Assembly: GCA_036342255.1 (NCBI GenBank)
Contig: JAZAUS010000002.1
Location: 6,334-70,333 of the forward strand
DNA: 64,000 bases
Direction of reading: 5' to 3'
From: Bacilli bacterium
Lineage (GTDB): Bacteria > Bacillota_I > Bacilli_A > RF39 > UBA660
This document shows positions 11,125-49,163 of this stretch, piece by piece; position 1 is the first letter of the stretch, and every line of letters starts with the position of its first letter. The notes beneath the pieces are model-generated. The model was not told the DNA's origin. It did not search any database and saw only the letters and a program-made list of their open reading frames with translations. Position numbers and translations under genes: made by a program.

Positions 11125-13530
11125 TTATTTGGTATGTTTTTCATAATTAGATATTCTTTTATTATATATTTCCATTTCTAATTCTACATCTACTAAACTA
11201 TATAATATTTTTCTTAGTTCTTGATTATAATCTTTTAAATTATTTATTTCTTTTTTATTTAAATCTTCAATTGATTCATCAATTTTCTTAATTATAAGAT
11301 TCCTTATCATATCTCTAGTGTCTTTATCAGGTATTTTTTTATATAAATAATTATTCATTTCAGTAATAGTAGATGTAATTGCTTTTAATTCAATATCTTT
11401 TGTTATTTTAACAGTTTCTTTATTGTTTATTATTTGTTTACTTTCTTCTAATTGATTTAATAAATCTTCTTTATCATATTTTTTTGTTTTTAATGAATCC
11501 ATAATATTATATTGTTTTATCATAATTAATAATTCTTGTATTTCTTTTATAAGTTTAGTTTCTATTTTTTCATATTTAGTATTATTTAATAAATCTTTAT
11601 TACCTATGATATTTTTTAGCATATTAATATATTTTGCCTTTATAGAATTAAATTTATTATTAATATCTTCTTTATAATTATTATTTGATAAATTATTAAC
11701 TATTTCTTCAATTAAATTTAATTCTTCAATTATATCTGATGAAGTATTAGTATTCTTCTCTAAAGCATTTAGTAATTTTACAAATGGTATTATCTTATTA
11801 TAAGATAAAGATACTTCATCATATAATTTAGAGATATTTAAATCTAATTTTTTATCTATATCAAAACCATTGTTATAAGATAAATCTGGTTTAAAATCTA
11901 TACCTTTTTCTAATTCTTTTGATACTCCCCTAGTAGCATCATCTAAATATTTTATTAGTTCTTCTCTATATGATTCTTTATTATTATTTATTTCATTTAT
12001 CATAAATATAATATTATTAATTTTAGCATATATAGAACTATCATCTTTTATTAATTCTTTTGGACTTGTAGATAATATTTTTTTATAATTACTTAATTTT
12101 TCCATATAGTTAATAGCTTTATCTTCACTTGTTAGCTGCAATAGTATTAATTCTAATTCATTTAATAATAATGGTTTTAGTAAATCAATATCTTTTTCAC
12201 CAAGATTAAAGTCATTGCTAGAGCCAAATTCTGGTTTAGCCTCTTTTAGATCTTTTTTATATTGTTTTAGTAATTTACTAACCTTATCTGTTATACTTTT
12301 TTTAGTATTATCTGGTAAATTATTACTAATGTTATATATCTTATCTAATAAGTCTTGTATATCTTCAGAAAAGTCACCATTTTTGAAAGATAGTTCTATT
12401 AATGGGGAAATTAACCTTTTAATTTTTTTTATTTCACTGCTAGTTAGTTCAGGACCATCTAATATAAGTTTAGTTATCCTTTTTGTATCATCATAAATTT
12501 TAACTCTATCATATTCTTTTGTATTTTGTTGGAAAATATTATGCATTATATCTGTATTATTCTTTTTTTTATCCTTATGTGCTTGATCTTTATTACCATT
12601 CAAAATACTTTTTAATTCATTAAAATTAGTATATTTTATAACTTTTGTTAAATTAACAGATTGGAGAATATCTTTTAAAAAATTATTTTCTAGGAAATTA
12701 CTAGTTTTATAATCTGATATTTCTATGAAACTCCAAGGCTTTTTTTTCCACCAATTTTCATAATAATAATCTTTTTCATAATAAGGTACATCACGATTCA
12801 TAACTTCATATGCATATCTACTTATATTTCGATCTTCATTTCCTAAAAAACTATTAAATAGTCCTAATTTTGAATATAAGATTCCATTTTCAACTTCCCA
12901 TTTTATTGGTAAAACTTTTAACCATATTACTTCATTAGATTTTCCTTTTCTATTATCAACAAAACGTATATACTTATTACCTTTATATTCATATTCGTTA
13001 TATTTTGTTACTCTATCCTTACTTTCCCTATTTTGAAATCTATATTTACCATAATATGCATCTGAGGGCTCTGATTTAATTATTGGTGTTGTTTCTATAG
13101 TATATGTATGTCCAGTTAGTTTTAGTTTTTGATAAGCAGATGCTTTGGAATTATTATAGAATGAACTGGCAGTTTTATATAATTGTTCTAGTTCTTGCCC
13201 AACTACTGGGTCAGCCTTAGTTTGAGGATATTCACCAAATTCTATTATATTATCATCACTATATTCATCAATAAGTGATAATAAAATATCTTTGGGTAAT
13301 AATAATTTAGGATATACTATTTCGTTTATTGATCCATATCTAAAAACAGGAATAAATCTGGCCATGTAATAATCATAACTTGTTAATTCAGCTAAATCAG
13401 TTTTATTAAAAGATTCTTCTTCTAAGCATGATGTAGGATATCCTAATGTTTTTATACTCTTATAATCAAGAAGTCTATCAGTTGATATTTTATCTAGATT
13501 AGGACAATAATCTATTTCAATGTGTTCCAT
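11125..13530 (-). CDS. paralog family member P3 (type-2, 801 aa)
   Basis: IEFGEYPQ, YNEYEYKGNKYIRF, WLKVLPIKW, FLKDILQSV, ILDGPEL, NISKLYDEV, KAITSTITEMNNYL. Confidence 0.8.
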   Translation of the reverse strand: MEHIEIDYCPNLDKISTDRLLDYKSIKTLGYPTSCLEEESFNKTDLAELTSYDYYMARFIPVFRYGSINEIVYPKLLLPKDILLSLIDEYSDDNIIEFGEYPQTKADPVVGQELEQLYKTASSFYNNSKASAYQKLKLTGHTYTIETTPIIKSEPSDAYYGKYRFQNRESKDRVTKYNEYEYKGNKYIRFVDNRKGKSNEVIWLKVLPIKWEVENGILYSKLGLFNSFLGNEDRNISRYAYEVMNRDVPYYEKDYYYENWWKKKPWSFIEISDYKTSNFLENNFLKDILQSVNLTKVIKYTNFNELKSILNGNKDQAHKDKKKNNTDIMHNIFQQNTKEYDRVKIYDDTKRITKLILDGPELTSSEIKKIKRLISPLIELSFKNGDFSEDIQDLLDKIYNISNNLPDNTKKSITDKVSKLLKQYKKDLKEAKPEFGSSNDFNLGEKDIDLLKPLLLNELELILLQLTSEDKAINYMEKLSNYKKILSTSPKELIKDDSSIYAKINNIIFMINEINNNKESYREELIKYLDDATRGVSKELEKGIDFKPDLSYNNGFDIDKKLDLNISKLYDEVSLSYNKIIPFVKLLNALEKNTNTSSDIIEELNLIEEIVNNLSNNNYKEDINNKFNSIKAKYINMLKNIIGNKDLLNNTKYEKIETKLIKEIQELLIMIKQYNIMDSLKTKKYDKEDLLNQLEESKQIINNKETVKITKDIELKAITSTITEMNNYLYKKIPDKDTRDMIRNLIIKKIDESIEDLNKKEINNLKDYNQELRKILYSLVDVELEMEIYNKRISNYEKHTK

Positions 13531-16618: not shown

Positions 16619-17044
16619 TTATACTCTTTTATTTGTATTCTTTTTACCAAAAATATTTGTATTAATAAATATAAATATATTTGATATTAATATTATTGTA
16701 TCTATTAACAATCCAGCAAAAGAGAATACATGTATACTATATATAACCCTAGCTGTATATGAAATAATAGCTCCTATTGTTACATATTTCTTCTCTAGAG
16801 TTAGACTATAACCATCTACTAAACTAGCAAATATTGGTAAGTAATCATACCAATTTCTTACACATAATAAGCTTATGGATATATATAATATAGCGCTAAC
16901 TATAAATATATATTTATCTTTATCTGTTTTATAATATAAGAAATCTCTTGTTCCTTCAAGTAAATATGTACAAGCACCACTATAAGCACCTAATAAAATA
17001 TAATGAATAAAATCTAATGCTCCTGATATAATATGAAAAGACAA
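16619..17044 (-). CDS. small polytopic membrane protein inside the array; TTG start, possible 5' frameshifted extension to 17136
   Basis: 141-aa hydrophobic ORF; overlapping ATG-initiated 40-aa hydrophobic ORF (17014..17136) in another frame suggests frameshift or sequencing error. Confidence 0.4.
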   Translation of the reverse strand: MSFHIISGALDFIHYILLGAYSGACTYLLEGTRDFLYYKTDKDKYIFIVSAILYISISLLCVRNWYDYLPIFASLVDGYSLTLEKKYVTIGAIISYTARVIYSIHVFSFAGLLIDTIILISNIFIFINTNIFGKKNTNKRV

Positions 17045-23828: not shown

Positions 23829-24578
23829 TTACTTTATTCCTTTTTTCTTGTTTAAATATTCATATATACATTTTTCTCTTTTTAAATCGTTATTTTTAAC
23901 ATTAGTATTAGGTAACATTTGATAATCACTAGCAACATATGGTGTACTCTTCTTTTTAAAAAATACTGTCTCTACAGTTGAATAATTTGTTCCATCAAAT
24001 CCAAATCCTTCAGATACTTCTTTAAAACCTAAACTATGATATAAGTTTTTAGCTCTTAAATTATGCATTAAGCAATCAAATCCTATTTCATCGAATCCTT
24101 CTTCATGCATTTGTTCAATAAAGTATTTCAAAAGCCTTTTACCTATACTTTTACCACGTAAATTAGTATCAATACATATATTGGTTAAATACATATATTT
24201 TTTCTCAACGACTTCATCTATTAATACTTTTAAATAATTATCTACTGTAAATTTATAATTATCATTTACATTAATTAAGTTAGTATAATCATAATCTAGA
24301 TTTGTAGTTGTATCAATAGCTCCACATATTCCTATTATTTTTTTATTTTCTTTATCATATGCAACATAAAAGTTTTCATAATGAAATATAAATCCTTCTT
24401 CATGCATTAATGGAACTAACACCTTTATAGCTTCATCCAAATTATTATTAAACCAAAAAGGATATATATATGGATCTGTATCATATATTAATCTAGCTAT
24501 CTCACTAAAATCATCATCTATAGTAGCCCTTCTCAATATTATATCATCAAAATTTATTTCATAACTTTTCTTACTCAT
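23829..24578 (-). CDS. GNAT-family N-acetyltransferase embedded in the paralog array
   Basis: 249 aa; acetyl-CoA binding-like motif NLRGKSIGKRLL (R/Q-x-x-G-x-G/A) in translation. Confidence 0.6.
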   Translation of the reverse strand: MSKKSYEINFDDIILRRATIDDDFSEIARLIYDTDPYIYPFWFNNNLDEAIKVLVPLMHEEGFIFHYENFYVAYDKENKKIIGICGAIDTTTNLDYDYTNLINVNDNYKFTVDNYLKVLIDEVVEKKYMYLTNICIDTNLRGKSIGKRLLKYFIEQMHEEGFDEIGFDCLMHNLRAKNLYHSLGFKEVSEGFGFDGTNYSTVETVFFKKKSTPYVASDYQMLPNTNVKNNDLKREKCIYEYLNKKKGIK

Positions 24579-37000: not shown

Positions 37001-37426
37001 TTATTCATTATTTCCCATTGTGAAACATACCATATACTTTTTAAATTCAACAAAAAACATATCATCCATTAAATAAAACATACTTATGCCTCCATCACAT
37101 CTACCAAGTGAATCTAATAATTTGTTGTTTTTTATTGTATATACTTTGATTGGATTACCTATTTCAAGATTAATCCAATATAATAAGCTTTCTAATAACT
37201 TTTTTTCATCAGTACCTAACCAAGAGGCTAGTATTTGTTCTAGTGTTTTATTTGTTTCTTCTAATTCAATTAATTCTTCTTTTATTTTGTATTTATTGGC
37301 AAAAGATTTTTTGTAATCTTTTTTATACATGCAATCTACTTCTATAAATGAAGGGCCTATATAGGAAGAAATAGATGAAGCTAGATTAGTTAGTCCGGTT
37401 AGATATGAACTAATATTTTGCTGCAT
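37001..37426 (-). CDS. hypothetical protein
   Basis: ORF-track 154 aa; start probably internal M14 to avoid 26-nt overlap with gpmI. Confidence 0.4.
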   Translation of the reverse strand: MQQNISSYLTGLTNLASSISSYIGPSFIEVDCMYKKDYKKSFANKYKIKEELIELEETNKTLEQILASWLGTDEKKLLESLLYWINLEIGNPIKVYTIKNNKLLDSLGRCDGGISMFYLMDDMFFVEFKKYMVCFTMGNNE

Positions 37427-37439
37427 TATATCACCACCT

Positions 37440-38954
37440 TTATTTATTAATAAGTACTTTCCCATCTATTTCAATAGGTATTGGTATATTTAATAGTGAT
37501 AACATAGTTGGAGCTATGTCTGCTAGTTTACCATTATCTATTAATTTTAGATTTTTTCTCGTTATGATAAATGGTACTTTATTGGTTGTATGTGTTGTAC
37601 ATGGAGTACCATCTTCATTAATCATAACATCACAATTACCATGATCAGCTGTTACTATTAGAATTCCATCTATTTCTTTTATTTTGTCATATAATCTTTT
37701 TAGACATTTATCGACGAATTCTACTGCTACAACGGCAGCATCATAATTACCAGTGTGTCCAACCATATCCCCATTAGCATAGTTTAAAATAACTACATCT
37801 AAATAATCTTTATTTAGTTCTTTTAATAATTTATCTGTTATTTCTTCAGCACTCATTTCCGGTTTTAAATCATATGTGGCTACTTTTGGAGAATGAACTA
37901 GTATTCTTTTAGAGTGTTTTAATTCTTTTTCTACTCCTCCATCAAAGAAATAAGTAACATGGGCATATTTTTCTGTTTCTGCTATTCTTAGTTGATTTAA
38001 GCCTAAGCCTTCTATATACTCACCTATGGTATTGTTTAATACTTGGTGATCAAAAGCATGTTCACCCATAACAGTATCTGTAATTGGCATCATTGATACT
38101 AGCTTTATATTATTAAATGTCTTAGTTTCCATAGGACTAGCTTTAGGATTAGTTATGGCTGTACACATTTCTCTTAATCTATCTGGACGATAATTAAAGA
38201 TTATTATGCCATCGTTATCATTTAAGTAGCCATTGGTATTATTAATTATACTTGGTTTAATGAATTCATCTGTTATATCATTTTCATATGATTTATTAAA
38301 TACTTCTGTAGGAGTGTTATATTTATCACCTATTCCATAACAGATAGCATCATACGCTAGTTTTAATCTATCATAGTTATTATCTCTATCCATAGCATAA
38401 TATCTACCAGATATAGTAGTAATAACACCTATATTTGTTTCTTTTAATTTTTTTTCTAATTCTTCTATATACTTTATTCCACCATGAATATCGGTATCTC
38501 TTCCATCTGTGAACATATGCAAATAAACTTCATTAATGTTTTGTTTTTTACACATATCAATGATGGCAAATAAGTGCGATATATGAGAATGAATTCCTCC
38601 ATCACTTAAAAGACCCATAATATGTAATTTGGAATTATTATCTTTAACATGTTGCATTATCTTTAATATATTTTCATTTTTAAAGAAATTTTTACTTTCT
38701 ATTTCTCTATTAATTAATTCTTGTGGTTGATATACTATTCTTCCTGCTCCTATATTCATGTGTCCTACTTCACTATTGCCCATTTGACCTTTTGGAAGAC
38801 CTACTAATTGGCCAGAGGCTTCTAATAAAGTATGAGGATAATTATTGTATAAATAATCAAATGTAGGTTTTTTAGCGTTTTTAAAAGCATTACCATTACT
38901 TTCTTTTCTAATACCACAACCATCTAGTATACATAATACTAAAGTCTTTTTCAT
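37440..38954 (-). CDS. gpmI: 2,3-bisphosphoglycerate-independent phosphoglycerate mutase
   Basis: 504 aa; full-length iPGM (N-term MKKTLVLCILDGCG..., metal-binding His/Asp motifs). Confidence 0.9.
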   Translation of the reverse strand: MKKTLVLCILDGCGIRKESNGNAFKNAKKPTFDYLYNNYPHTLLEASGQLVGLPKGQMGNSEVGHMNIGAGRIVYQPQELINREIESKNFFKNENILKIMQHVKDNNSKLHIMGLLSDGGIHSHISHLFAIIDMCKKQNINEVYLHMFTDGRDTDIHGGIKYIEELEKKLKETNIGVITTISGRYYAMDRDNNYDRLKLAYDAICYGIGDKYNTPTEVFNKSYENDITDEFIKPSIINNTNGYLNDNDGIIIFNYRPDRLREMCTAITNPKASPMETKTFNNIKLVSMMPITDTVMGEHAFDHQVLNNTIGEYIEGLGLNQLRIAETEKYAHVTYFFDGGVEKELKHSKRILVHSPKVATYDLKPEMSAEEITDKLLKELNKDYLDVVILNYANGDMVGHTGNYDAAVVAVEFVDKCLKRLYDKIKEIDGILIVTADHGNCDVMINEDGTPCTTHTTNKVPFIITRKNLKLIDNGKLADIAPTMLSLLNIPIPIEIDGKVLINK

Positions 38955-39014
38955 TTTATCATTCTCCTTAACTAAATATTATTATACAATAAAAAGACTT
39001 TTATTTAAAGTCTT

Positions 39015-39443
39015 TTATCTTAATTTAGGTTTATCATTATTCTCAAATAGTTTATTATAATTTGCAACACGTTTTCCATATACTATTTCACTATCGGTTC
39101 TAGATTTATGCATTATTTCTTCAAAAGTTATTTTTTCATAATCTTCTTCAGTAAGAAAGCTATGACTTCCTTTTTTTGATTCTGCTAAGTCTTGGATAAT
39201 GCATTTATAAGTATATACTGTTTTTTCTTCAAGGTTTAGTATGCTATTAGGGATTGGATAATTATTATGAGCAAAACTGTTATATAGTTCTTTTAAGAAT
39301 TTTATTGTTTTAGTATAAGCTGCTTCATCATTTAGCCATTCACCAGCAAGTCTTCCTTTTTCTGTGCTTTCTAAATTGCTTATATATTCATTAAGTTTTT
39401 CATCCCATCTTCTACTTTGTTCTATCTTATCCATTATTATCAC
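39015..39443 (-). CDS. hypothetical protein
   Basis: 142-aa ORF, no recognisable motif. Confidence 0.4.
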   Translation of the reverse strand: MIIMDKIEQSRRWDEKLNEYISNLESTEKGRLAGEWLNDEAAYTKTIKFLKELYNSFAHNNYPIPNSILNLEEKTVYTYKCIIQDLAESKKGSHSFLTEEDYEKITFEEIMHKSRTDSEIVYGKRVANYNKLFENNDKPKLR

Positions 39444-39480
39444 TCCTAGTTTAGTTGTTGATTATATTTTATCAAACAAT

Positions 39481-39507
39481 AGAAAAAGTAGCAATAGATA
39501 TGCTACT
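39481..39507 (-). terminator. rho-independent terminator after the LOG-like gene
   Basis: hairpin agtagca-N7-tgctact followed by T-run on minus strand; same element recurs at 47040..47070. Confidence 0.5.
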
Positions 39508-40033
39508 TTTTTTGTGTTAATTCAATGGCTTTAGATAAAGCTTCTTGTGGTGTTGATACTTTTATACATTTTAATCTTTTTCTATCATCTAGATATTTAT
39601 TGGATAATTTATTGGCCCAACCACCATATTTGTCTACTACTATTATTGGTATTTCTGCTTGATATGCTATGGCTATTTCGGTTAGGGTTCCTGATCCTCC
39701 TGATATAGCTATTATAATGTCACAAGATAATACTAGGTTAAATTCTCTTCCACCACCTATTTCTAATCCTGAATTGATTAAGATGGTTGGGCGATATGAT
39801 CCATAAATTTTTTTATTTTTACCACTAGTAATACCTACAGTGATTCCATTATTTTTACTGGCTGATTTGGCTGCTTCTGTTGATAGAGATGTATACTCTT
39901 TTTCAGCACCATATACTAGTATGTTTCCTGATTTGGCTATTAATTTGCCTAATTCTTTGGCAAATTTAATAGCTTCTTTACTATATTTTAAATCAGCAGC
40001 TGATCCCATTATACCTATTTGTATCTTTTTCAT
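39503..40033 (-). CDS. LOG-family / TIGR00725-like Rossmann-fold protein
   Basis: 176 aa; GIMGSA...GITVGI...ISGGSGTLTE pattern of LOG/SLOG-type nucleotide-binding proteins. Confidence 0.55.
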   Translation of the reverse strand: MKKIQIGIMGSAADLKYSKEAIKFAKELGKLIAKSGNILVYGAEKEYTSLSTEAAKSASKNNGITVGITSGKNKKIYGSYRPTILINSGLEIGGGREFNLVLSCDIIIAISGGSGTLTEIAIAYQAEIPIIVVDKYGGWANKLSNKYLDDRKRLKCIKVSTPQEALSKAIELTQKK

Positions 40034-40704
40034 AATTTTCTTATCTCCTTCTTTAAGGTTTTAACGACTTCTTCATTTTCATTAGTATTAATTATTCTTT
40101 CAGGTAACTCTGATATTTTGGTATTGGTTTTCTTTTGTTTATCTATTTCTTCCCATAGATAGGTACTTCTATATAGGCAACCTTTAGAAAAATATTTTTC
40201 ATATTTATCAGGTATAGAGGCTCTTTCATTAGGATTGCCATATGGTTTAAAATATGGAGCTTTATAGAGGCCGTTATTGGTATTAATCATAATACCGGAG
40301 CCTGCTATGCCAAAATAGAAGTCTCTTTCACATATTTGATCTATGACACTTGTTGACATTAAATAGTTGGTTATAAGGCCATATTTTAGATTTTGATTAA
40401 AAATATAATAGGCTTTACTGGTAGTTAGGGATGATATTATTCCTACTACTTTTATATTATATTTATTAAATCTATTAATAATATCTTTTAGTACATTACC
40501 TGAGAATACTACATCATCTGCTAATATTATTTGTTTTGCTTGTATTTGGTTAGATAATCTTGATATTTGGTAATCTAATGATTCACTGGTTCTAGATATT
40601 ATTTCATTAGTACCATCTACTCTAGTGCAATCTAAAAAATAGATATTTTTTTCATCAGGCCTTATATAAATTTTATCTAGAGTAACAATGGGGATAGTCA
40701 CCAC
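40030..40704 (-). CDS. type I phosphoribosyltransferase-like protein
   Basis: 224 aa; PRPP-binding-like IILADDVVFSGNVL motif; GTG start; 4-nt overlap with the LOG-like gene. Confidence 0.5.
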   Translation of the reverse strand: MVTIPIVTLDKIYIRPDEKNIYFLDCTRVDGTNEIISRTSESLDYQISRLSNQIQAKQIILADDVVFSGNVLKDIINRFNKYNIKVVGIISSLTTSKAYYIFNQNLKYGLITNYLMSTSVIDQICERDFYFGIAGSGIMINTNNGLYKAPYFKPYGNPNERASIPDKYEKYFSKGCLYRSTYLWEEIDKQKKTNTKISELPERIINTNENEEVVKTLKKEIRKL

Positions 40705-40918
40705 TTATTAGGTTATTTACTTCTAACATTTCTTCTTCTGTAATTATAGTTACATTACTATTAAATATTTTATTTACATCCCTTTTAAAATCTTCTCTTA
40801 TGGTATTAATTACTATATTGTTTGGTATAAATTTATATTCATAATTATAGGCATTTACGCCTTTTAATATTCTTTTTATGTCATTACTAAAGACAATTCC
40901 TTTATTTATTTTTTTCAT
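40673..40918 (-). CDS. hypothetical small protein overlapping the PRTase-like gene start by 32 nt (possible frameshifted N-terminal domain)
   Basis: 81-aa ORF with GAGGAG RBS; different frame from the downstream gene. Confidence 0.4.
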   Translation of the reverse strand: MKKINKGIVFSNDIKRILKGVNAYNYEYKFIPNNIVINTIREDFKRDVNKIFNSNVTIITEEEMLEVNNLISGDYPHCYSR

Positions 40919-40956
40919 AATAATCTCCTCTTTCTTATATTTATTTAATTAAAAAA

Positions 40957-40981
40957 GCTATACAAGTAGTACTTGTATAGC
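40957..40981 (-). terminator. perfect 12-bp-arm palindrome followed by T-run on minus strand, between leader ORF and the RBS of the downstream operon (terminator/attenuator)
   Basis: gctatacaagta-g-tacttgtatagc with aaaaaa on + strand side. Confidence 0.5.
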
Positions 40982-41043
40982 ATAATAGTTTTATTTATAG
41001 CTAGATACAAGCACTACAAATAGCACTTGTACCTACGACAGGG

Positions 41044-41112
41044 TCAATGTCGTATTAACAAGTGCAGACTATTATGATGATGATTAAATTGTATTATATA
41101 TAATTTAATCAT
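41044..41112 (-). CDS. candidate 22-aa leader peptide MIKLYIIQFNHHHNSLHLLIRH
   Basis: ATG with GGAAGG RBS 7 nt upstream; overlaps a series of ACAAGT/ACTTGT alternative pairing segments ending in a terminator hairpin. Confidence 0.2.
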   Translation of the reverse strand: MIKLYIIQFNHHHNSLHLLIRH

Positions 41113-41162
41113 AATAATCCTTCCTTTCGTTGCAGTGATTATAGCATATAATATACTTTAAG

Positions 41163-41723
41163 TCAATTTTTTATGCATATATCTTCAGCATCCCAGTTAT
41201 TAAAATTAGGTTTTAAAGATAGTCTTTTTGCTCTGCTTTCTTTTCTTTTTTTACTTACATCTATATTTCTAATATTATCAAGAGCTATCTCATAATATTT
41301 AATGGCAGTTAAATCATTAATATTAGGATATACTTCTTTTAATTTAAAATATATAGCCTGAGCTAAACTTAAATCACATTTATTTCCAGTATTAATACCA
41401 TCAATTCTACTATGATGATTTTTTAAATAGTCATACATTATTTTATTTTTAAGTGAAAGATCATCTCTATTTTCATCTAAAACGCTTTCATCTAAACCGC
41501 ACTTAATACATCCACAACGTTTATTTTTATCATCATAAACTTTTGAATATACTAATACATGCTTACATAAATCATATTGTTCATTGCATAAGCTATAATT
41601 TAACATCTTCTTTAATTCTATATATTTTTTTACATTTTTATCTTCTTCAAGTAGTTTTATCTCATTCTTTATTTTTTTCCTTATCTCTTTCATTTTAGTA
41701 TATTCATTATCCAATTCTTTCAT
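41163..41723 (-). CDS. hypothetical protein with Cys cluster (CGCIKCG)
   Basis: 186-aa ORF; coiled-coil N-term; possible zinc-binding Cys pairs. Confidence 0.5.
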   Translation of the reverse strand: MKELDNEYTKMKEIRKKIKNEIKLLEEDKNVKKYIELKKMLNYSLCNEQYDLCKHVLVYSKVYDDKNKRCGCIKCGLDESVLDENRDDLSLKNKIMYDYLKNHHSRIDGINTGNKCDLSLAQAIYFKLKEVYPNINDLTAIKYYEIALDNIRNIDVSKKRKESRAKRLSLKPNFNNWDAEDICIKN

Positions 41724-41855
41724 TTAAAATTCCTCCAATTATAAATACTATTATAAATATTTCTCGTTTCTAATGTTTTTACCATTTCTACAAATATATC
41801 AATTTTATTTCTAGAATTGATATTTATTAGTAAATAGAAGAAAAGTTAAACCAAA

Positions 41856-42887
41856 TTATTTACGGCGCAAGCGACAAAGCGGCTTATACTTCATCCGATT
41901 TCTTCTTTCCAAATACAGTCTTTTTTCTTCTTGAAGTTTTTCTCTTGTAATAGGTGAATCATTTTGTACCACACTATCATCATATTTTGAACTTAAAGAT
42001 TGTAATTGTTCTAGATATGGTTTAATTTCTAGTAATACCTCATGTAATTGTTCTTTACTTTCTACATTTTTTAAACTTTCTATAATTTTACTTGTAATAT
42101 CATATTGAGAATATAAATCATCAACACCAATACTCAAATCAACAGAATTTCTTATACTATCACATTCTTCCTGTTTTTCTTTCTTTAAGCTTACAATTCT
42201 ATCAAATGTAAACTCTTTAGTTATATCTTCTGGTAATTTTTTATAATCAAATAATAAACTATTAACTGTAATTTTTTTCCCATATTTCGAAAGTTCGCAT
42301 TTTGAAATGTCGCCTAAGGAAACATCGGCAACTATTTCATAATTAGAACCAGTTGTTCTATATTCAACGATATCGCTTCGATAATTAGGAATTGCCTCCA
42401 TATTATCTAGATATGATATGCTAAAATTCTCATTAAGTTTTGTATATATTTTATACTCATTATTAGTGAAATCCAATTCTTCATTAAATTCTAATCTATC
42501 AAAACCTAATTTATTAATTTGTTCTAATAAAGAAAGTATTCTTTCTAAATCTTTTTGATGGTTTGTAATATACTTATAGAAGAAATCTACACTAGATTCC
42601 TCGTTTGAATTACCATAACAATCATTAATAAATTCACCTATACTATAAAATTTATTTATTATATCTATAACTGATTTATTATCTTTATAGAATCTTTTAA
42701 TTATTTTTGAGCCAACAACAAAATGGCCATTAGATATTTTACATAAATTATATACTATATCACTGTAATCTTCTTCTTTTATCAATCTTGTTAAATTTTT
42801 AGTAAATTCATCATAATCATTTAATATATGACATAATGCAATTAGATTATTTACTTGAATTGATATTGTTTTCTCTTCTTTTTCCAT
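41856..42887 (-). CDS. hypothetical protein
   Basis: 343-aa ORF, no recognisable motif. Confidence 0.5.
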   Translation of the reverse strand: MEKEEKTISIQVNNLIALCHILNDYDEFTKNLTRLIKEEDYSDIVYNLCKISNGHFVVGSKIIKRFYKDNKSVIDIINKFYSIGEFINDCYGNSNEESSVDFFYKYITNHQKDLERILSLLEQINKLGFDRLEFNEELDFTNNEYKIYTKLNENFSISYLDNMEAIPNYRSDIVEYRTTGSNYEIVADVSLGDISKCELSKYGKKITVNSLLFDYKKLPEDITKEFTFDRIVSLKKEKQEECDSIRNSVDLSIGVDDLYSQYDITSKIIESLKNVESKEQLHEVLLEIKPYLEQLQSLSSKYDDSVVQNDSPITREKLQEEKRLYLERRNRMKYKPLCRLRRK

Positions 42888-43025
42888 AAAACCTCCTCAT
42901 TTCGATAATTTATTATATTATTATATAATTAATTAGTCAATCACTTGATTAGGGTATTATTATTTAGTTTTCTTTTTTTCATTTGAATAATTAAATTCTA
43001 GATAGAGTTTATTGCTCTTTATGTC

Positions 43026-43113
43026 TTTTTCTTATAAACAAAAAAAATCAATCATTTCTGATTGATATCTTTCTAAATAATTCGAATAGTTCGAACAGAT
43101 TCGTCAATAGTGT
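43026..43113. repeat. about 87-bp repeat copy A (contains palindromes ATCAATCA-TTTC-TGATTGAT and GTTCGAA-TAG-TTCGAAC)
   Basis: near-identical to 48496..48582; partial copy at 43890..43919. Confidence 0.7.
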
Positions 43114-43127
43114 AATGCCGTAAATAT

Positions 43128-43598
43128 CTACAACTTCTTATTAAGGACTTTTGGATTATTAAAAATTATTTCTGGACTATAATATTTATTAGTAGTTTCT
43201 GTTGCTACCCACCCATAATCTTTAATAATTTTTGAAAATTCATCTAATCTTTTTTCTGGAATAGTTATTAATGGTTTTTCAGTACCTAAATACTCATATG
43301 AATCCTCTAGTATCAATTTAGAATAACCTTTTTTACGATAGTCTTCATTTATTAAAAGTGTACATATTTTAGATTCATCTTCAGTTTTTTTTAACATCGA
43401 TAAACCTACTATTTGAAAACCATCTAAATAAAATATAGCTTCACCATTTCCCGTTATTATTCTTGGTAAATTTTTTTGATAATACCATTTATAATATTCT
43501 GGATACTGAAGTTTATTATAGTCAGTTAATAAATAAATCTCGTTAACAGCTTTAGAAAAATTTTTATCTTTCATATTGCTTAATATATATTTTTCCAT
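43128..43598 (-). CDS. hypothetical protein, possibly GNAT-like acetyltransferase
   Basis: 156 aa; weak R-x-x-G-x-S motif (YRKKGYSKLIL). Confidence 0.4.
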   Translation of the reverse strand: MEKYILSNMKDKNFSKAVNEIYLLTDYNKLQYPEYYKWYYQKNLPRIITGNGEAIFYLDGFQIVGLSMLKKTEDESKICTLLINEDYRKKGYSKLILEDSYEYLGTEKPLITIPEKRLDEFSKIIKDYGWVATETTNKYYSPEIIFNNPKVLNKKL

Positions 43599-43889
43599 AG
43601 TACACCTCGGTTTTATATTATAACATAATCATATGTTATTTCAATATTTTATTTTATCAAAATATCTGTTATTCATTTATATTATTGTAATATTTATACA
43701 ATAGTTTTTACAAGAATATTTAGTTAGTTTAGGTACTATTATCCTTTAACTTTAATAAAAGTGTATAGAGATGAAGTTATGAGAAAATAAGAGAAATATC
43801 TTTGTACTATCATATATTTATTATATAAGATATTTCTTCACATATACAAAATAACAAAAAAAGAACTTTTTGAAAGCTCTCTATATGAA

Positions 43890-43919
43890 GTTCGAATAAT
43901 TCGAACAGATTCGTCAATG
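43890..43919. repeat. partial (30-bp) copy of the GTTCGAATA-TTCGAACAGATTCGTCAAT repeat
   Basis: matches the distal half of the repeats at 43026 and 48496. Confidence 0.6.
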
Positions 43920-44081
43920 ATACATGTGAAGAAAAAGTTGAATACCTTTTCTTGTAAACTTTATTAGGTAGTAATAAATTATTACCTAATATAAATATAC
44001 TACATTTTAAGTAAATGTTACAAAAAATAGTAAAAATATATAATTATATGTTAAAATATATACATAAGGGAGGTTTTTAAT

Positions 44082-45230
44082 TTGAAAAGTGTTGATGAAT
44101 TTGTAAGAAAAGATTGGACTTGGCCTGAAACTCTTAATGGTCAAATTGAAAATTATAAAGAATTAAATGACAGAATTGAAGATTGTTTATCTAGAAAAGA
44201 ACAATATGATAAATTAATTAGTGAAGAAAAGAATAATGAAGAAAATGGGAAATTAAGCTTTAAAGAACAATGGGGGTTATATAGTATTGTTGATAATTTG
44301 ATAAGAAAAAGTTCTAGTAATTGTACTTATTTAGGCGTAGATTTACTAGATTTAAGGCGACGATTAAAAAATGTTTATAAAGAAGTTTATGATTATGTTA
44401 GAATTAAGGATGAATTAAGAAGTCTTAGAGAAGAAAAACATAAAATATTAACTGAATATATTACTTTTAATATTTTTTATAAAGATTTTTTTAATGAACG
44501 TTGTGTAGACAGACACTTTTTTGTTAAATTAGAAGACGAATTAAAATGTATGTGTTGTGGTGCAACAACAAAAGATTATCCTTTGAGTAAAGAAGAACTA
44601 GATTTTTTAACATTATGTGCAGAAAATCAAGGAATATTATTAAAAGAAGTAACTAAAAATGATTTTCCTTTATTACAAGTTCTTATGGAAGAACAAGATT
44701 ATTATAGAAGTTTGAGAGAACCTTTAGATGTTGACAATGAATATTATTTATCAATAGCTGAAGAACAATGGTTAGAAGACGAAGCAGAAATACCACATTT
44801 AAGAGTACAAATTAGAATAGCACATTTACTTGATTCACAAAAATATGATAGTGAAGATATTAAAGTCACTAATCCAAAATACTTATCTGATGAAAAATCA
44901 AAAAAATTATTATTAGAAGTTGAAAAAGAATTGGGAAGAATTCAAGGAATTGATTCTAGATTTAAAGATTTAATGATGGAAGAATGTAAAACTGCAAAAT
45001 ATGAAATATTAATTTTATCAGGAGCACATATCCCAACTTTATTAGAACAAGCACAAAATGAAGATGAAAAAGTTGCATTAACAAAAGCATATTATAATAT
45101 TTCAAATCAAGAATTTAGAGATAATAGTAACTATTTTGATTCAAGATGGGATGCACTTTCATATGATTGCATAACTGCTAATCCTGAAATTAACAATAGA
45201 ATATTACAAATGAAGATAAGAAGAAAATAA
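44082..45230 (+). CDS. hypothetical protein
   Basis: 382-aa ORF with GGGAGG RBS; acidic, Cys-x-x-Cys pair (CMCCGAT). Confidence 0.55.
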   Translation: MKSVDEFVRKDWTWPETLNGQIENYKELNDRIEDCLSRKEQYDKLISEEKNNEENGKLSFKEQWGLYSIVDNLIRKSSSNCTYLGVDLLDLRRRLKNVYKEVYDYVRIKDELRSLREEKHKILTEYITFNIFYKDFFNERCVDRHFFVKLEDELKCMCCGATTKDYPLSKEELDFLTLCAENQGILLKEVTKNDFPLLQVLMEEQDYYRSLREPLDVDNEYYLSIAEEQWLEDEAEIPHLRVQIRIAHLLDSQKYDSEDIKVTNPKYLSDEKSKKLLLEVEKELGRIQGIDSRFKDLMMEECKTAKYEILILSGAHIPTLLEQAQNEDEKVALTKAYYNISNQEFRDNSNYFDSRWDALSYDCITANPEINNRILQMKIRRK

Positions 45231-45354
45231 CTGCAATTTATTGTAATTAAAAAATACATAATTTTGCTTTAACAAAAAGTTCATACTTAATTATATTTTA
45301 GGATTTTAAAAGAAACTTTCACTTTGTACTCCTATTAAATCTGCCAATAAAAAG

Positions 45355-45445
45355 TATGTTTTATCTATTGTATATAGATATTATCGACAAGCGAATGCTT
45401 GTCTTTTTAAATATCAAAATCCTTGTCATGCAATAGTTTTATTAA
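45355..45445 (+). repeat. about 90-bp repeat cassette copy 1 containing an intrinsic terminator
   Basis: 44-nt core identical to 46787..46830 and flanks about 85% identical. Confidence 0.65.
45386..45408 (+). terminator. rho-independent terminator
   Basis: hairpin gacaagc-gaat-gcttgtc followed by ttttt. Confidence 0.7.
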
Positions 45446-45541
45446 TAGATATACTATATTTTAAGGAAAAACAATAAAAAATATATTTTTCCTTAGAAAA
45501 TATGATATAATAGCTTTACTTTCGTTAAGGGGGAAGATAAT

Positions 45542-46603
45542 ATGTTTATACCAGTAGTGCCATTTGTACCACATACAACTGTAATTAATAAGACAATAGT
45601 ATATAATGATATAGTATTACCACTTAAAGATTTAGGTAATAATTTAAAAATTTGTAGTATTAGTAATATTAGTGAATATTCATTAGAAAGTTGCCTAAAA
45701 AAAATATTTGAATCTAATCCTGATGTAATATTTAATACAATTCAATATTCAAAAGAAGGTAAAAAGATATATTTTTATACTGATAAAGCTGTATCTACAC
45801 AAGCTTGGGAAGAAAGCAAAATTACTAAATACAAACCATTAAGCAATAGTGAAGAAATTATAAAAGAAGTTGATGAATTATTTACTCAAGAAAGAATTAA
45901 AGATACTGATTGTATATCATTATATGATATTGCAAATCTAATAAAAATATTTGACAATAAATACAAATATATAAAAGAAAGATATCAAGAACATTTTTAT
46001 AATATTAATCCAAGTATTATAATTTATAATTTTGATTATAAAAAGAAGCAATTAAGAATCGAATTTAAAAATGACGAAATATTTTTTGCAAAACAAAATG
46101 ATGATTTATATGTTGTTGAAAGTGAATCATTACATTATCAAGAATTATTAACTCTTATAGGAAAAGAATTATCAGAGCTTTATGATGAATTAATAAAGTT
46201 CCATGATTTTAAAAATCAATCTGCTTATGAAATAAAAGCATTAAATTCTAATTTCTTAGTTTATATAGGGCAGTATGGTGTTGATATTCATGTCGATAAA
46301 CGATCTAATAGATTTTCCAAAGATTTTAGTTTATCATCCCATAGTTATAAAAAGGAATATTATTATGAATGTAATTCAACTTCAGTTATAACAGCACTTA
46401 AAGGAAAAGAAGATGAGATATTTAAAAGAATATTTGTAAAAATTGATGATTGCCCTGAATGGAGCAAAACAATATTATATCAAATGAGACAAGATCAATT
46501 AGAAGAAGAAAAAAGATTAGAAGAAAAACAACTTTATAAAGAAATGAAAAGGCAAAAAAGATTAGAATTAAAAAGAAAGATTTTTCCTTGGATGAATAAA
46601 TAA
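45542..46603 (+). CDS. hypothetical protein
   Basis: 353-aa ORF with GGGGGAAG RBS; Lys/Glu-rich C-terminal tail. Confidence 0.55.
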   Translation: MFIPVVPFVPHTTVINKTIVYNDIVLPLKDLGNNLKICSISNISEYSLESCLKKIFESNPDVIFNTIQYSKEGKKIYFYTDKAVSTQAWEESKITKYKPLSNSEEIIKEVDELFTQERIKDTDCISLYDIANLIKIFDNKYKYIKERYQEHFYNINPSIIIYNFDYKKKQLRIEFKNDEIFFAKQNDDLYVVESESLHYQELLTLIGKELSELYDELIKFHDFKNQSAYEIKALNSNFLVYIGQYGVDIHVDKRSNRFSKDFSLSSHSYKKEYYYECNSTSVITALKGKEDEIFKRIFVKIDDCPEWSKTILYQMRQDQLEEEKRLEEKQLYKEMKRQKRLELKRKIFPWMNK

Positions 46604-46751
46604 TAGTCAAGCATGTTTCTGTTTGCGATTGCAAATAAAAGTGGCAATAGATTTTAAAAAAACATATTTTTGATTGATTGTTTAATTAAGCTTTAAGGTT
46701 TCAAAAGGGAATATTCCCTTTGCACACACCATTTTGACTCTATCAAATGAA

Positions 46752-46850
46752 AAATATGTTACTCTATTAGAAATAGAATATTATATGACAAGCGAATGCT
46801 TGTCTTTTTAAATATCAAAATCCTTGTCATACCATAGTTTTATAAAAGAT
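46752..46850 (+). repeat. repeat cassette copy 2 containing an intrinsic terminator
   Basis: see copy 1. Confidence 0.65.
46787..46809 (+). terminator. rho-independent terminator
   Basis: hairpin gacaagc-gaat-gcttgtc followed by ttttt. Confidence 0.7.
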
Positions 46851-46879
46851 ATAATCATTCTCACTTTCTTTCTTAAACA

Positions 46880-47036
46880 ACAAAAAAAACTAACATTTCT
46901 AGTTAGTTCATTTATTGCATCTCGGATAAGTTGTCCGAGTTTACTATCATAATGGTGCGAACGACGAAGTGGTTTACAACTCTTTGGCATAAAGACGATT
47001 GATTTATATCAATCACTACATTCATTTTACCAAAGA
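46880..47036 (-). ncRNA. candidate small structured RNA (locally GC-richer, bounded by two minus-strand terminators)
   Basis: lies between the terminator of gene 47064..47771 (47040..47070) and hairpin aactaac-N7-gttagtt plus T-run (46880..46906); internal hairpins ctcgga-N7-tccgag and gattgat-ataa-atcaatc. Confidence 0.25.
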
Positions 47037-47063
47037 ATAGAAAAAGTAGCAATAACTTTTATG

Positions 47064-47771
47064 CTACTTTGATTCTTTTTTTCTTCCTAATACTTTTTGT
47101 TTTGCTTTTTGCAATTGTTCTTTTTCTTTTTGGTACATTTGCTCTTCAATAATTTTTATATTTTTTTGTTCCTCAGATTCAATTTTATCAATGTCTTCTT
47201 TACTACTTACTTTTATAAAAGAATCTCTAAGTTGACTATAACAATCAGAATTTGGTAGTAATGTATTTGGATCAACTGTAAATATTAATTTTTGATTATT
47301 TAATCTATATGAATATATTTCTTTTTCAACATATAATTTAATTTCATCTGGATTTTCATCATCTTTATATATATCTATAATAGTACCTTCTAACCAATTA
47401 GCTTCTTTTAGCATACTATTATCTTTTATAGAATAAATACCTCCACAACGATATCGACCAGTGTTGCCCCAATAAGTGAACATTATCCTATCATCAGAAA
47501 TAAAATAAAATTGACTAAATCTTTCAGAAAATAATTTTATAAACTTAGATTTTTGTAGTTTATATCTTACTATTTCGAAATCATCATAATTTGCTCTTCT
47601 AAAAACAAGAAACTCATCGTCTGTGACTTGTTCAAAACCTATAATGTGATTCAAAAAATAAATTTCTTCATTTTCCTTATCTATAAGTTTGTAAGAATTA
47701 TAATTTTCTTTATCAATTTCAACGATTTTCCATCTTTTTTCATCTGCTTTTGTTTCATATAATCTACTCAT
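47064..47771 (-). CDS. hypothetical protein
   Basis: 235-aa ORF with GGAGGGA RBS. Confidence 0.5.
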   Translation of the reverse strand: MSRLYETKADEKRWKIVEIDKENYNSYKLIDKENEEIYFLNHIIGFEQVTDDEFLVFRRANYDDFEIVRYKLQKSKFIKLFSERFSQFYFISDDRIMFTYWGNTGRYRCGGIYSIKDNSMLKEANWLEGTIIDIYKDDENPDEIKLYVEKEIYSYRLNNQKLIFTVDPNTLLPNSDCYSQLRDSFIKVSSKEDIDKIESEEQKNIKIIEEQMYQKEKEQLQKAKQKVLGRKKESK

Positions 47772-47846
47772 AGTATCCCTCCTGTTTAATTAGCATATAT
47801 TATAACATAACTTTTTGGCTTTTCATACTACAATTATTTTTTTTTA

Positions 47847-48485
47847 TTACCTCTCATAATCATCACGATTTTTCTCTTTTTTATTAATAACACTAGTATA
47901 TTCTTTTTCGTCCATAATACCATTTATAAATAAATTATCAGCCATTTCTTTATATTTATCATCTTTATCGCCAAATATACCATGTATTTTATCGTGAATA
48001 AATTTTATTACTCTTTGAAATTTATCTTTCCAATAGTCTAATGAATCTTTTAAATCTTTTATTTTAGATTTTAATGAAGAAATTTCATCATCTGAATTTT
48101 CTTCATTTTCATAGTAAGGAACATGTTTTGATTCTACTAATATAGATTCCTTACTATATACAACATTACCATCACATTCAGCTGGTATTAATTTAAATAC
48201 ATCATCAACATTTTCTAGTAAAGTTCCATTATCTTCTTTAACATATAATACACCAAGATTATGAACATAGATTTCATTTGAATAATTAAATGCTAGAAAT
48301 GTAATACCTTTAATAATAATTCTATGTGGCTCAATATAAGTTAAATTAGTATGTTGTATTTTCCTAATACTACCATTCTCTATGATAGGTGTAGTATTGC
48401 AAAAATCACATATAACATTTAATCTAGAAACTAATGATTCATCAATCTCAATTTCTTCTTTAATTATTTTTATCATAGACACCAA
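47847..48485 (-). CDS. hypothetical protein (TTG start in ORF track)
   Basis: 212-aa ORF; Cys pairs (CDFCNTTP ... AECDG). Confidence 0.45.
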   Translation of the reverse strand: MVSMIKIIKEEIEIDESLVSRLNVICDFCNTTPIIENGSIRKIQHTNLTYIEPHRIIIKGITFLAFNYSNEIYVHNLGVLYVKEDNGTLLENVDDVFKLIPAECDGNVVYSKESILVESKHVPYYENEENSDDEISSLKSKIKDLKDSLDYWKDKFQRVIKFIHDKIHGIFGDKDDKYKEMADNLFINGIMDEKEYTSVINKKEKNRDDYER

Positions 48486-48495
48486 CCTTTCTATG

Positions 48496-48582
48496 ATTTT
48501 TTCTTATAAAATGAAAAAATCAATCATTTCTGATTGATATCTATCTAAAAGTTCGAATAGTTCGAACAGATTCGTCAATGGT
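48496..48582. repeat. about 87-bp repeat copy B, abutting the 3' end of tRNA-Thr
   Basis: near-identical to 43026..43113; last 3-4 nt overlap the tRNA CCA end. Confidence 0.7.
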
Positions 48583-48654
48583 GCTGAAGACAGGACTTGA
48601 ACCTGCGACCTATTCATTACGAGTGAATTGCTCTACCAACTGAGCTACTTCAGC
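48579..48654 (-). tRNA. tRNA-Thr (anticodon CGU), CCA encoded
   Basis: cloverleaf folds by hand: acceptor GCUGAAG/CUUCAGC, D-stem GCUC/GAGC, anticodon stem AUUCA/UGAAU with loop CUCGUAA, T-loop GGTTCAAGTCC. Confidence 0.85.
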
Positions 48655-48713
48655 ATTACCAATATAATTATAGCACATTTTTGTTAAATAGAACAATGAT
48701 TTATAAAAAAAGA

Positions 48714-49163
48714 CTATTGAAGTCTTTTAGATAATACTTTATGTTCAGTTAATTCATTTTGTCTAATATAATTACTTATTTCTTCATCTGTTATATCTTC
48801 AATAGTCTTTTTTAAGTATTTGGATGCTATAGAATAAGGTTTTGTACATATTATTTCTTCTATTACACCTTTTTGTTCAAGAATACTTCTTATAATATCT
48901 TCATAATATGTGTTATCATATAAAATTTTATTTGTTTGAATATTTTTCTTATATTTGTTTACTCGTTCTGCAATTAGTATTTGGGTTTCTTTTTTTAGTT
49001 TTTTAGTTGGACCTATGTTTACCCAGTTTAACATGTATCCATCAGATGTTGCTTTTACTAGATCTTCATAATCTACCATAAAGCCAGCTGTATGTTGTTC
49101 TTTTATTTTTATTAATCCAGTTACTATTTCTTCAAATTTTGAGATTAATGAATTGTTTTTCAT
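48714..49163 (-). CDS. hypothetical protein
   Basis: 149-aa ORF directly downstream of smc. Confidence 0.45.
   Translation of the reverse strand: MKNNSLISKFEEIVTGLIKIKEQHTAGFMVDYEDLVKATSDGYMLNWVNIGPTKKLKKETQILIAERVNKYKKNIQTNKILYDNTYYEDIIRSILEQKGVIEEIICTKPYSIASKYLKKTIEDITDEEISNYIRQNELTEHKVLSKRLQ

Follow-up and report, generated by a model that had tools for sequence, protein, structure and literature searches.

Behind the only tRNA gene of the 64,000-nt stretch of Bacilli DNA analysed here (the window; coordinates are window positions unless another locus is named), a tRNA-Thr(CGU) recognized by both ARAGORN and Rfam (76.3 bits in Rfam), lies what is very probably a 9.6-kb stack of at least four tandem non-autonomous units, all of them without a recombinase. 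The repeat that adjoins this tRNA most likely represents the tRNA-proximal end, here called the T module, of a family of small integrative mobilizable elements of AT-rich uncultured gut Bacilli. We put the probability of this explanation at roughly 85%, a joint figure that covers the element family, the model of its attachment site attP and the decayed tandem array in the window. The window array is a fossil of modest interest, and the element family behind it is the more interesting result.

A first-pass annotation of this DNA had described the tRNA gene as abutted by an 87-bp repeat that recurs ~5.4 kb away, together with a 30-bp half copy, and had read the arrangement as a possible island remnant left by insertion at the tRNA 3' end. 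tRNA prediction and a repeat search of the window bear out the arrangement and extend the repeat to ~98 nt (48487-48583 and 43015-43112), with 87% identity between 43015-43077 and 48487-48549 and 92% identity between 43076-43112 and 48547-48583. A third copy of the 37-nt core lies at 43886-43922 (78% identity), and the supposed half copy is really a complete two-hairpin module (43850-43922) that differs in the sequence of its terminator stem. The window contains the 19-mer TTCGAACAGATTCGTCAAT exactly three times; 0.01 occurrences are expected, and none of 100 shuffles reached that number. Read on the tRNA strand, the copies run from (N)CCA through TTGACGAATCTGTTCGAAC and a 7-bp hairpin (GTTCGAA-N3-TTCGAAC) to a spacer and a second hairpin followed by a U-run. 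Both perfect palindromes pointed out earlier are present, TTCGAA hexamers recur with 9-10 nt spacing, and all window copies fold into two hairpins when folded one by one. As also described before, the repeat ends inside the tRNA CCA, with a 4-5 nt overlap with the tRNA 3' end (CACCA in copy B, CACTA in copy A). Base composition fails to mark an island, with a GC content of 0.23-0.25 within the region compared to 0.25-0.28 around it, in a window of ~24% GC overall.

Evidence that this region is inserted DNA comes from relatives on long contigs, which we aligned by anchoring synteny on the SMC protein of the window (72-76% identity). In one of them (locus L125), the gene order is that of the window, with SMC and tRNA-Thr(CGT) followed by the P-type ATPase, Exo_endo_phos, Mbeg1-like, Band_7 and AA_kinase genes. 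Its tRNA-Thr is followed directly by a terminator of its own and, 140 nt later, by the PGM gene, with no repeat and no insert, and nucleotide homology to the window ends at 48578. The tRNA-Thr of L125 is an unoccupied target site. Two further relatives (L124 and L126) carry the same tRNA-Thr followed by one T module and a remnant of ~330 nt that fuses the start of a small gene (orf93, see below) to the C-terminus of a Mob relaxase, and then continue with different genes. Because homology to the window stops at 48578 and resumes at 38993, which is the iPGM promoter, the variable region spans 48578-38994 (9.6 kb), and it follows from the comparison of the three loci that the T module arrives with the inserted DNA. 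The first-pass annotation had proposed to look for strains that lack the segment; such strains exist, one empty (L125) and two with a single T module and other content (L124, L126), so that its island remnant was right in substance. Exact-protein look-ups led to short contigs, among them contigs of two other samples, in which the gene order is as in the window wherever neighbours are visible; the look-up of the window iPGM returned no match.

An exact scan with an 18-nt core of the T module, covering one GTDB genome per species, yielded at least 119 stretches. Among the matches listed, ~110 of the 119 come from AT-rich metagenome-assembled genomes labelled Bacilli, 'Tenericutes', Erysipelotrichaceae or Clostridium sp. 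CAG, and the other ~9 are chance hits in high-GC genomes. At the listed AT-rich loci the T module always stands directly after a CCA end and in a single orientation: 65 copies directly follow a tRNA-Gly, -Leu, -Thr, -Phe, -Cys, -Ala, -Arg or -Met gene or a transfer-messenger RNA (tmRNA) gene, and the rest are preceded by non-tRNA sequence ending in GC(A/T)CCA. A sister type of left-end module, 'X2', was found directly after tRNA-Lys, tRNA-Leu and tRNA-Gly, as well as after the non-tRNA sequences (P-units, see below) in other loci. Rfam searches at gathering thresholds, covering the window and 20 loci in which non-tRNA sequence lies upstream, detected nothing but tRNAs and a single unrelated sRNA; neither the T module nor the P-units belong to a described RNA family. 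IMG/VR gave three matches, one due to chance and two real T modules (L122 and L123). On these two contigs (L122, T at 11757, minus strand, 51 kb; L123, T at 10509, plus strand, 40 kb) just 15-23 nt of a tRNA-Gly 3' end precede the T module, and similar junctions of truncated tRNA and T module are present in L046, L051, L105 and L111. Such junctions look like attachment (att) sites of other elements, possibly prophages, that entered a tRNA gene already bearing a T module.

A hairpin followed by a T-run is present in 87 of 94 unique T modules, in 36 different hairpin sequences with compensatory changes, and the stems vary in the compensatory, G-U-tolerant manner typical of RNA hairpins. RNAalifold on a MAFFT alignment of 54 T modules misaligned the terminator owing to indels, and per-sequence folding was therefore used. 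Because of the compensatory changes and the U-run, we read the palindromes as RNA hairpins, the second of which is predicted to behave as an intrinsic (Rho-independent) terminator. It would end transcription of the tRNA and shield the recombinase operon behind it. Since there is no space for a promoter between this terminator and orf93, we infer that the recombinase is probably expressed by read-through from the tRNA promoter or from a P-unit promoter.

BLASTN comparison with the listed loci revealed homology that extends from the T module into orf93, a large serine recombinase (LSR) gene and the Mob gene. The window segment 48252-48584 matches dozens of loci, and the segments 48075-48262, 47846-48093 and 46933-47074 match L032 and L069, where they are spaced far wider. 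In L032 the T module is followed by a 93-aa open reading frame (ORF), a 646-aa recombinase (Resolvase PF00239, 1.4e-34; Recombinase PF07508, 1.2e-17; a weak zinc ribbon PF13408) and a 446-aa Mob_Pre relaxase. The same recombinase architecture was found in L062 and L127-L142, and the relaxases match Mob_Pre PF01076 at 1.2e-13 (L032) and 1.7e-16 (L062), with a weak NCBIfam match to MobV. In tRNA strand order, the intact element of 4.7-6.8 kb comprises the T module, a 90-93-aa ORF (orf93) without a resolvase domain, the ~645-aa LSR, the MobV relaxase, variable cargo and a P-unit. Spacing is constant across loci, with orf93 starting 93-101 nt, the LSR 510-635 nt and Mob ~2.8 kb after the start of the T module. 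The N-terminal catalytic domain of the LSR matches the TP901-1 integrase structure, and its top NCBIfam match is CcrB, at 143 bits against an equivalog cut-off of 900. In none of the loci examined (~110 copies) does a tyrosine recombinase adjoin the T module; serine recombinases do. PLSDB plasmids and INPHARED phages contain no close relative of the LSR (≤34% identity, over the N-terminal half), and the DNA query matched them in its tRNA part alone. Metagenomes, by contrast, hold at least 7,775 recombinase clusters (90% identity) at E ≤ 1e-100, of which more than 100 share 95-100% identity with the L032 recombinase. At the level of the family, four features of an integrative mobilizable element are present, namely an LSR gene, a relaxase gene, precise boundaries and an unoccupied target. 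The cargo includes a methyltransferase and a radical-SAM enzyme in L062 (2481-7807, minus strand) and an ABC transporter with a GNAT-type acetyltransferase in the element of recombinase P0132 (L127-L133), all of which could be resistance-type functions.

The other end of the element is the P-unit. The non-tRNA sequences found before T modules fall into recurrent classes of 45-80 nt, here called P-units, which combine an extended -10 resembling a promoter with a 5' hairpin and an arm that finishes in GC(A/T)CCA; they also occur before sequences other than T. A promoter-like site lies 48-80 nt before the CCA in 25 of 31 P-units. The boundaries are defined most sharply by P0132, a recombinase found in identical form on 12 contigs. 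Its ~6.8-kb element (T, orf90, LSR, Mob, ABC transporter, GNAT, P-unit) is located after a tRNA-Leu(tag), after the tmRNAs of several hosts and after a class-I P-unit (L131). The left flanks of these copies diverge exactly at ...CACCA|TTGACG and the right flanks exactly past the P-unit ...GCACCA, from which it follows that the element extends from the T module through the P-unit and that one recombinase uses many targets sharing the acceptor end. In L128 the right flank is a plain terminator and T is present on the left side alone; a single insertion is flanked by a direct repeat of only ~5 nt (CACCA). A 97% identical recombinase, P0207, is found at tRNA-Thr(CGT), and more generally the same T variant occurs with 97-98% identical LSRs in different species and at different tRNAs. 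In L136 (12573-13938) and L137 (8005-9370), a second, different LSR of 617 aa starts ~740 nt past the P-unit of the first element and sits behind a sister-type left-end module (TAGGGAAATCCGCTCGAAC...), a tandem of two apparently intact elements.

Within the window, four left-end modules divide the variable region into units E1-E4 (Table 1). E1 still shows the conserved spacer between the terminator and the ribosome-binding site of orf93, and the fragments fused in its 209-aa ORF are 91%, 89% and 92% identical to the L032 proteins (tblastn), joined by two deletion junctions at short repeats (microhomology of ~10 nt and ~17 nt). Because these orf93, LSR and Mob fragments are in frame, we regard ORF 47847-48476 as the wreck of an integrase module. 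The E1 P-unit is 89-95% identical to the right ends of L032, L117 and L047, and identical units end the elements of L127-L133. E1-type elements form a shrinking series from L032 (4.7 kb, intact) through L117 (2.5 kb) and the window (1.6 kb) to L047 (1.1 kb), and E1 is by this comparison a deletion derivative. It retains an intact T module and a P-unit ending in GCACCA, as a non-autonomous cassette or cis-mobilizable element (CIME) does. The left-end module of E2 stands directly after the E1 right end, which finishes in GCACCA at 46953, and is the fourth module of the window. Its right end has homologues in the P-units of L002 and L131 and in L026, with the terminal CCA decayed to TCA. As the right-end CCA is mutated in both E2 (TCA) and E3 (CTA), these two units are probably fossils. 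In the remainder of the region, ORF 39503-40033 is SLOG/LOG-like (PF18306, 7.7e-30; TIGR00725) and overlaps by 4 nt the phosphoribosyltransferase (PRTase)-like ORF 40030-40704 (PF00156, weak); PADLOC and NCBIfam recognized no defence system among the cargo ORFs, this pair included.

Table 1 Features of the variable region behind tRNA-Thr(CGU) in the window; units, modules and ends are as predicted by comparison with other loci.
Feature	Position	Strand	Description
tRNA-Thr(CGU)	48579..48654	-	Putative integration target, B arm of attL; same tRNA downstream of SMC in L124-L126
E1	48578-46953	-	T module, chimeric ORF, 235-aa ORF, intact P-unit
E1 T module (repeat B)	48487..48578	-	Arm TTGACGAATCTGTTCGAAC 48578-48560; hairpin 1 48567-48551; predicted terminator 48538-48519; U-run 48518-48514
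E1 chimeric ORF, 209 aa	47847..48476	-	In-frame orf93 aa 1-78, LSR aa 582-645 and MobV aa 364-446
E1 cargo ORF, 235 aa	47064..47771	-	No function assigned; position of a 134-aa ORF in the intact L032 element
E1 right end (P-unit)	46953..47074	-	Terminator, promoter-like TGgTAAAAT, 5' hairpin, arm ...CTTCGTCGTTCGCACCA at 46953 (nhmmer, P-arm profile)
E2	46952-43920	-	X2-type left end, two plus-strand ORFs, class-I P-unit
E2 left-end module, sister 'X2' type	46880..46952	-	TTATGATAGTAAACTCGGAC..., hairpin, terminator and U-run; fold z = -4.07
E2 cargo	44082..46603	+	ORFs 44082-45230 and 45542-46603, no assigned function; same 60-nt terminator repeat behind each
E2 right end (class-I P-unit)	43920..44023	-	Promoter-like site, two hairpins, ...CACATGTATCA; fold z = -3.38
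E3	43919-43113	-	T module, GNAT, degenerate right end
E3 T module (former half copy)	43850..43919	-	Same 30-nt core; other terminator stem GAGCTTTCAAAAAGTTC and U-run
E3 cargo, GNAT-type acetyltransferase	43128..43598	-	phrog_13728, 1.5e-10; several weak Pfam GNAT models
E3 right end, degenerate	43113..43145	-	...AAGTTGTAGATATTTACGGCATTACACTA; GTTGTAGAT motif of a common P-unit class; CCA decayed to CTA
E4	43112 to ~38994	-	Second near-identical T module, six ORFs
E4 T module (repeat A)	43015..43112	-	Same lineage as the E1 copy
Rest of variable region (E4, possibly further decayed units)	38994..43014	-	ORFs 41856-42887, 41163-41723, 40673-40918, 40030-40704, 39503-40033, 39015-39443

These assignments modify several earlier statements. 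The 5.4 kb bracketed by the two long repeats had been treated as a single segment, and it consists of three units (E1-E3), with the variable region running on to ~38994. That no integrase was seen holds for an intact one, as ORFs 39015-48476 contain no recombinase domain; what survives is the 64-aa C-terminal LSR fragment (aa 582-645) fused into ORF 47847-48476 and the relaxase part beside it (Mob aa 364-446). Some of the five bracketed proteins called unannotatable indeed lack an assigned function, and two do not, ORF 43128-43598 being a GNAT acetyltransferase and ORF 47847-48476 the recombinase/relaxase chimera.

We propose the following mechanism. Excision would join the P-unit to the T module and thereby create attP. 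The LSR would recombine this attP with a tRNA gene at its acceptor end, the exchange falling on a dinucleotide (C72-N73) of which the discriminator is part. The element would bring the distal bases, its own CCA and a replacement terminator, so that the tRNA would stay intact and functional. Repeated integration at one tRNA, combined with internal deletions, would leave tandem units that keep both ends and have lost the recombinase, and the repeat would recur because several elements or cassettes stand in tandem. The 19-nt arm of the T module, as a putative recombinase binding site, is part of this explanation and no rival to it. T modules of variant A follow A73 in 45 of 45 cases and those of variants B and C follow U73 in 48 of 50, the latter at tRNA-Gly, and this match between discriminator base and T variant holds at both the tRNA|T and the P|T junctions. 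Such a near-perfect correlation is what would be expected if attP and attB had to carry the same central dinucleotide. The dyad symmetry of 45 P|T junctions peaks at -5/-4, that is, at C72|N73 (9.27 of 24 complementary positions compared to ~6 in other registers), and E1-type junctions read TTCGTC-N5-CA-N5-GACGAA. Together, these data suggest a crossover at C72-N73. A candidate recognition motif, the T-loop-like GTTCGAA, was set aside as a lead only, given that the symmetry of tRNA|T junctions peaks at several registers and that the native right flank in L128 lacks the motif. T modules in the same orientation lie 0.8-6.3 kb apart in several other loci, and cargo is unrelated between units with the same P-unit class and T module. 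By analogy, such arrays fit accretion and decay as in CIMEs and in the ssrA islands of Dehalococcoides.

Several points weigh against this explanation. No circular or excised form was found, and 15 whole contigs showed no terminal overlap. The suggested crossover site relies on a correlation and on a modest dyad symmetry, ~2.6 standard deviations above the other registers. LSRs normally recombine only attP with attB, and how an LSR restricted in this way would build tandem arrays is unexplained. The window holds no intact recombinase and hence no demonstrable activity. E4 lacks a recognizable right end and is assigned to the array because it begins with a T module and is missing from relatives. 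Promoter-like sites in the region are not more frequent than in shuffles (83 compared to 85.7, in a single scan of AT-rich DNA). Single-sequence promoter calls therefore carry no weight here, and what argues for P-unit promoters is solely their conserved position.

The alternative that survives best keeps the same elements and differs in how the arrays arise. The tRNA|T junction or a tRNA-mimicking P-unit would be re-used as a target, much as in integrons or staphylococcal cassette chromosomes (SCC), and decay would not be the only process at work. P|T junctions make up ~40 of 110 copies among the matches listed, arrays of 0.7-2.5 kb single-gene units share both ends and not cargo, and P-units end in GC(A/T)CCA like tRNAs, with a discriminator-equivalent base that matches the T lineage; in L131 an element with the identical LSR stands directly after a P-unit. 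However, E1 demonstrably arose by deletion, E2 and E3 have a decayed CCA, excised cassettes were not observed, and canonical LSRs use no hybrid sites. We consider serial capture of this kind unlikely on balance, though a serious contender. A bolder proposal would have the LSR recognize the generic acceptor end of tRNAs and tmRNAs, cross at C72-N73 and leave a reusable tRNA|T junction, giving rise to integron-like cassette platforms whose promoter-bearing, tRNA-mimicking P-units may make a small CCA-ended RNA; we rate it as slightly more doubtful still. An integron in the strict sense is not indicated, as no tyrosine recombinase was found and the cassette ends are a T module and a P-unit instead of attC.

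Far less probable is that the T module is a host tRNA trailer (a processing or terminator module, or a REP-like repeat) native to tRNA operons, beside which the recombinase elements insert. The module does always follow a CCA end and makes a good intrinsic terminator, and ~30 loci have it without a detectable orf93 or LSR downstream. Yet the orthologous tRNA-Thr of L125 has a different terminator in its place, and this empty site largely refutes the trailer. Furthermore, T variants co-vary with LSR lineages across species and tRNAs, T modules also follow P-units that are not tRNAs, and single elements carry T on the left only (L128).

A classical tyrosine-integrase island, in which one integration at tRNA-Thr duplicated an ~87-bp att core and the integrase was lost later, is more improbable again. 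It would account for a direct repeat with one copy adjoining the tRNA and for the missing integrase between the copies, and it is the form of att duplication that the first-pass annotation had in mind. The repeat shares ≤5-6 nt with the tRNA, short of the duplication of at least ~15 nt by which such islands are recognized; it is carried by the element, and a single integration leaves a repeat of the size of CACCA. Moreover, a tyrosine recombinase adjoins none of ~110 copies, whereas serine recombinases do occur beside the module, single elements are flanked by CACCA only, and four module copies, one of sister type, split the region into separate units.

Equally improbable are operator cassettes, with transcription-factor sites at the TTCGAA repeats controlling downstream minus-strand genes, for although every window copy lies upstream of a minus-strand gene and TTCGAA recurs at 9-10 nt spacing, the downstream content is unrelated between copies, the constant parts are the upstream CCA end and the terminator, the stems vary like those of RNA hairpins, and no conserved DNA-binding protein with a regulon matching the genes downstream of T was found. 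This placement also disposes of the REP-like or transcription-factor module that had been offered earlier: all of the ~110 listed copies directly follow the CCA of a tRNA, tmRNA or element end in one orientation, and the copies in AT-rich genomes show no terminal inverted repeats of the kind expected of a miniature inverted-repeat transposable element.

Integrative mobilizable elements, their decayed derivatives and SCC-like composite arrays are already known; what is unusual here is an LSR that targets the extreme 3' end of many tRNAs. SCC and SCCmec cassettes are inserted by LSRs at the 3' end of a conserved gene that stays intact, and they form composite tandem arrays including cassettes without ccr. 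The family described here resembles them in that CcrB is the best-scoring curated family, although at 143 bits, as opposed to 900, the LSR is not a Ccr equivalog. It also differs in its target (the tRNA/tmRNA CCA end, not rlmH (orfX)), its single recombinase gene, its size of ~5-7 kb and the relaxase it carries.

A close parallel is found in the ssrA genomic islands of Dehalococcoides, which have a module with the CcrB-like serine recombinase DsiB beside attL at the tmRNA 3' end. These islands occur in tandem, many units without an integration module are read as cis-mobilizable, and the islands are proposed to be mobilizable, not conjugative (PMC3146451). Both families have tmRNA among their targets, CcrB-like recombinases (as the best NCBIfam match in ours) and tandem units without a recombinase. 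However, the ssrA islands insert in the T-loop with a 20-bp ssrA direct repeat, whereas our family inserts at the acceptor end with ~5 nt (CACCA) shared, uses many tRNAs as well, and showed no second small serine recombinase like DsiA/CcrA. It is set apart further by its MobV relaxase, its T terminator module and its P-unit.

For Firmicutes, the formation of CIMEs by tandem accretion has been described as integration, loss of recombination and transfer genes with the ends kept, and further integration beside the remnant (PMC5704250), which is exactly the pattern of the window array. The cases described at tRNA genes use tyrosine integrases, and serine-recombinase integrative mobilizable elements usually disrupt dispensable genes (PMC5704250); the LSR of our family, unlike these, uses the non-disruptive niche of the tRNA 3' end. 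The tycheposons of Prochlorococcus likewise place cargo elements and degenerate remnants in tandem at tRNA genes, a minority of them with LSRs (bioRxiv 10.1101/2020.12.28.424599), but most have tyrosine recombinases, partial-tRNA flanks and replication modules, none of which was seen in our family. Multi-targeting LSRs, finally, are single recombinases that use several targets with a common short motif (Durrant et al., PMC10083194). The motif common to the targets of our family is the functional 3' end of tRNA and tmRNA genes; tRNAs are mentioned 0 times in the main text of that study (PMC10083194).

For the window, these results mean that the anonymous 9.6 kb are strain-variable mobile DNA behind tRNA-Thr and not core genome, with the 209-aa ORF as a fossil. 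Beyond it, they point to a family of elements that is very abundant in uncultured, poorly known gut Bacilli and inserts at tRNA and tmRNA 3' ends without disruption. If the att sites proposed above are right, their compact size (~50 bp) and universal target motif could make these recombinases useful as integration tools, and the arrays would offer reduced-genome gut bacteria a route to collect and exchange cargo such as ABC transporters, acetyltransferases and methyltransferase/radical-SAM gene pairs.

Some further features of the region and its surroundings deserve mention. The 60-nt direct repeat of E2 (45386-45445 and 46787-46846, plus strand, 95% identical) consists of the hairpin GACAAGCGAATGCTTGTC and a T-run and lies 155-185 nt past each of the two ORFs, which are not detectably related. 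On the minus strand at 41166-40957, a strong promoter-like site (TTGACT-17-TATAAT with an upstream TG) precedes a mini-ORF (MIKLYIIQFNHHHNS...) and ~100 nt of GC-richer sequence; the locus ends with an 11-bp-stem terminator (40981-40957), has no Rfam match and may encode a small RNA or a small toxin, or act as a leader.

Between SMC and tRNA-Thr, the window contains a minus-strand ORF of 149 aa (48714-49163) that among 5.8 billion proteins matches itself alone (an ORFan) and for which a metagenome scan found no relatives. Since only ~50 nt separate the SMC stop codon from the tRNA in L124-L126, this ORF is a lineage-specific insertion upstream of the tRNA. On the other side of the variable region, relatives carry a gene for a 421-aa class-II aminoacyl-tRNA synthetase (tRNA-synt_2b and HGTP_anticodon; 18943-20208 in L124) between the PGM and P-type ATPase genes; the corresponding position of the window holds a 154-aa ORF alone (37001-37465, minus strand), 62% identical to a 140-aa ORF of L125. 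Farther away, at 6685-26752 on the minus strand, eight tandem paralogous ORFs of 683-1011 aa (32-48% pairwise identity, no Pfam match) form a 20-kb array that is interrupted only by genes for an Imp-YgjV membrane protein (16619-17044) and a GNAT protein (23829-24578).

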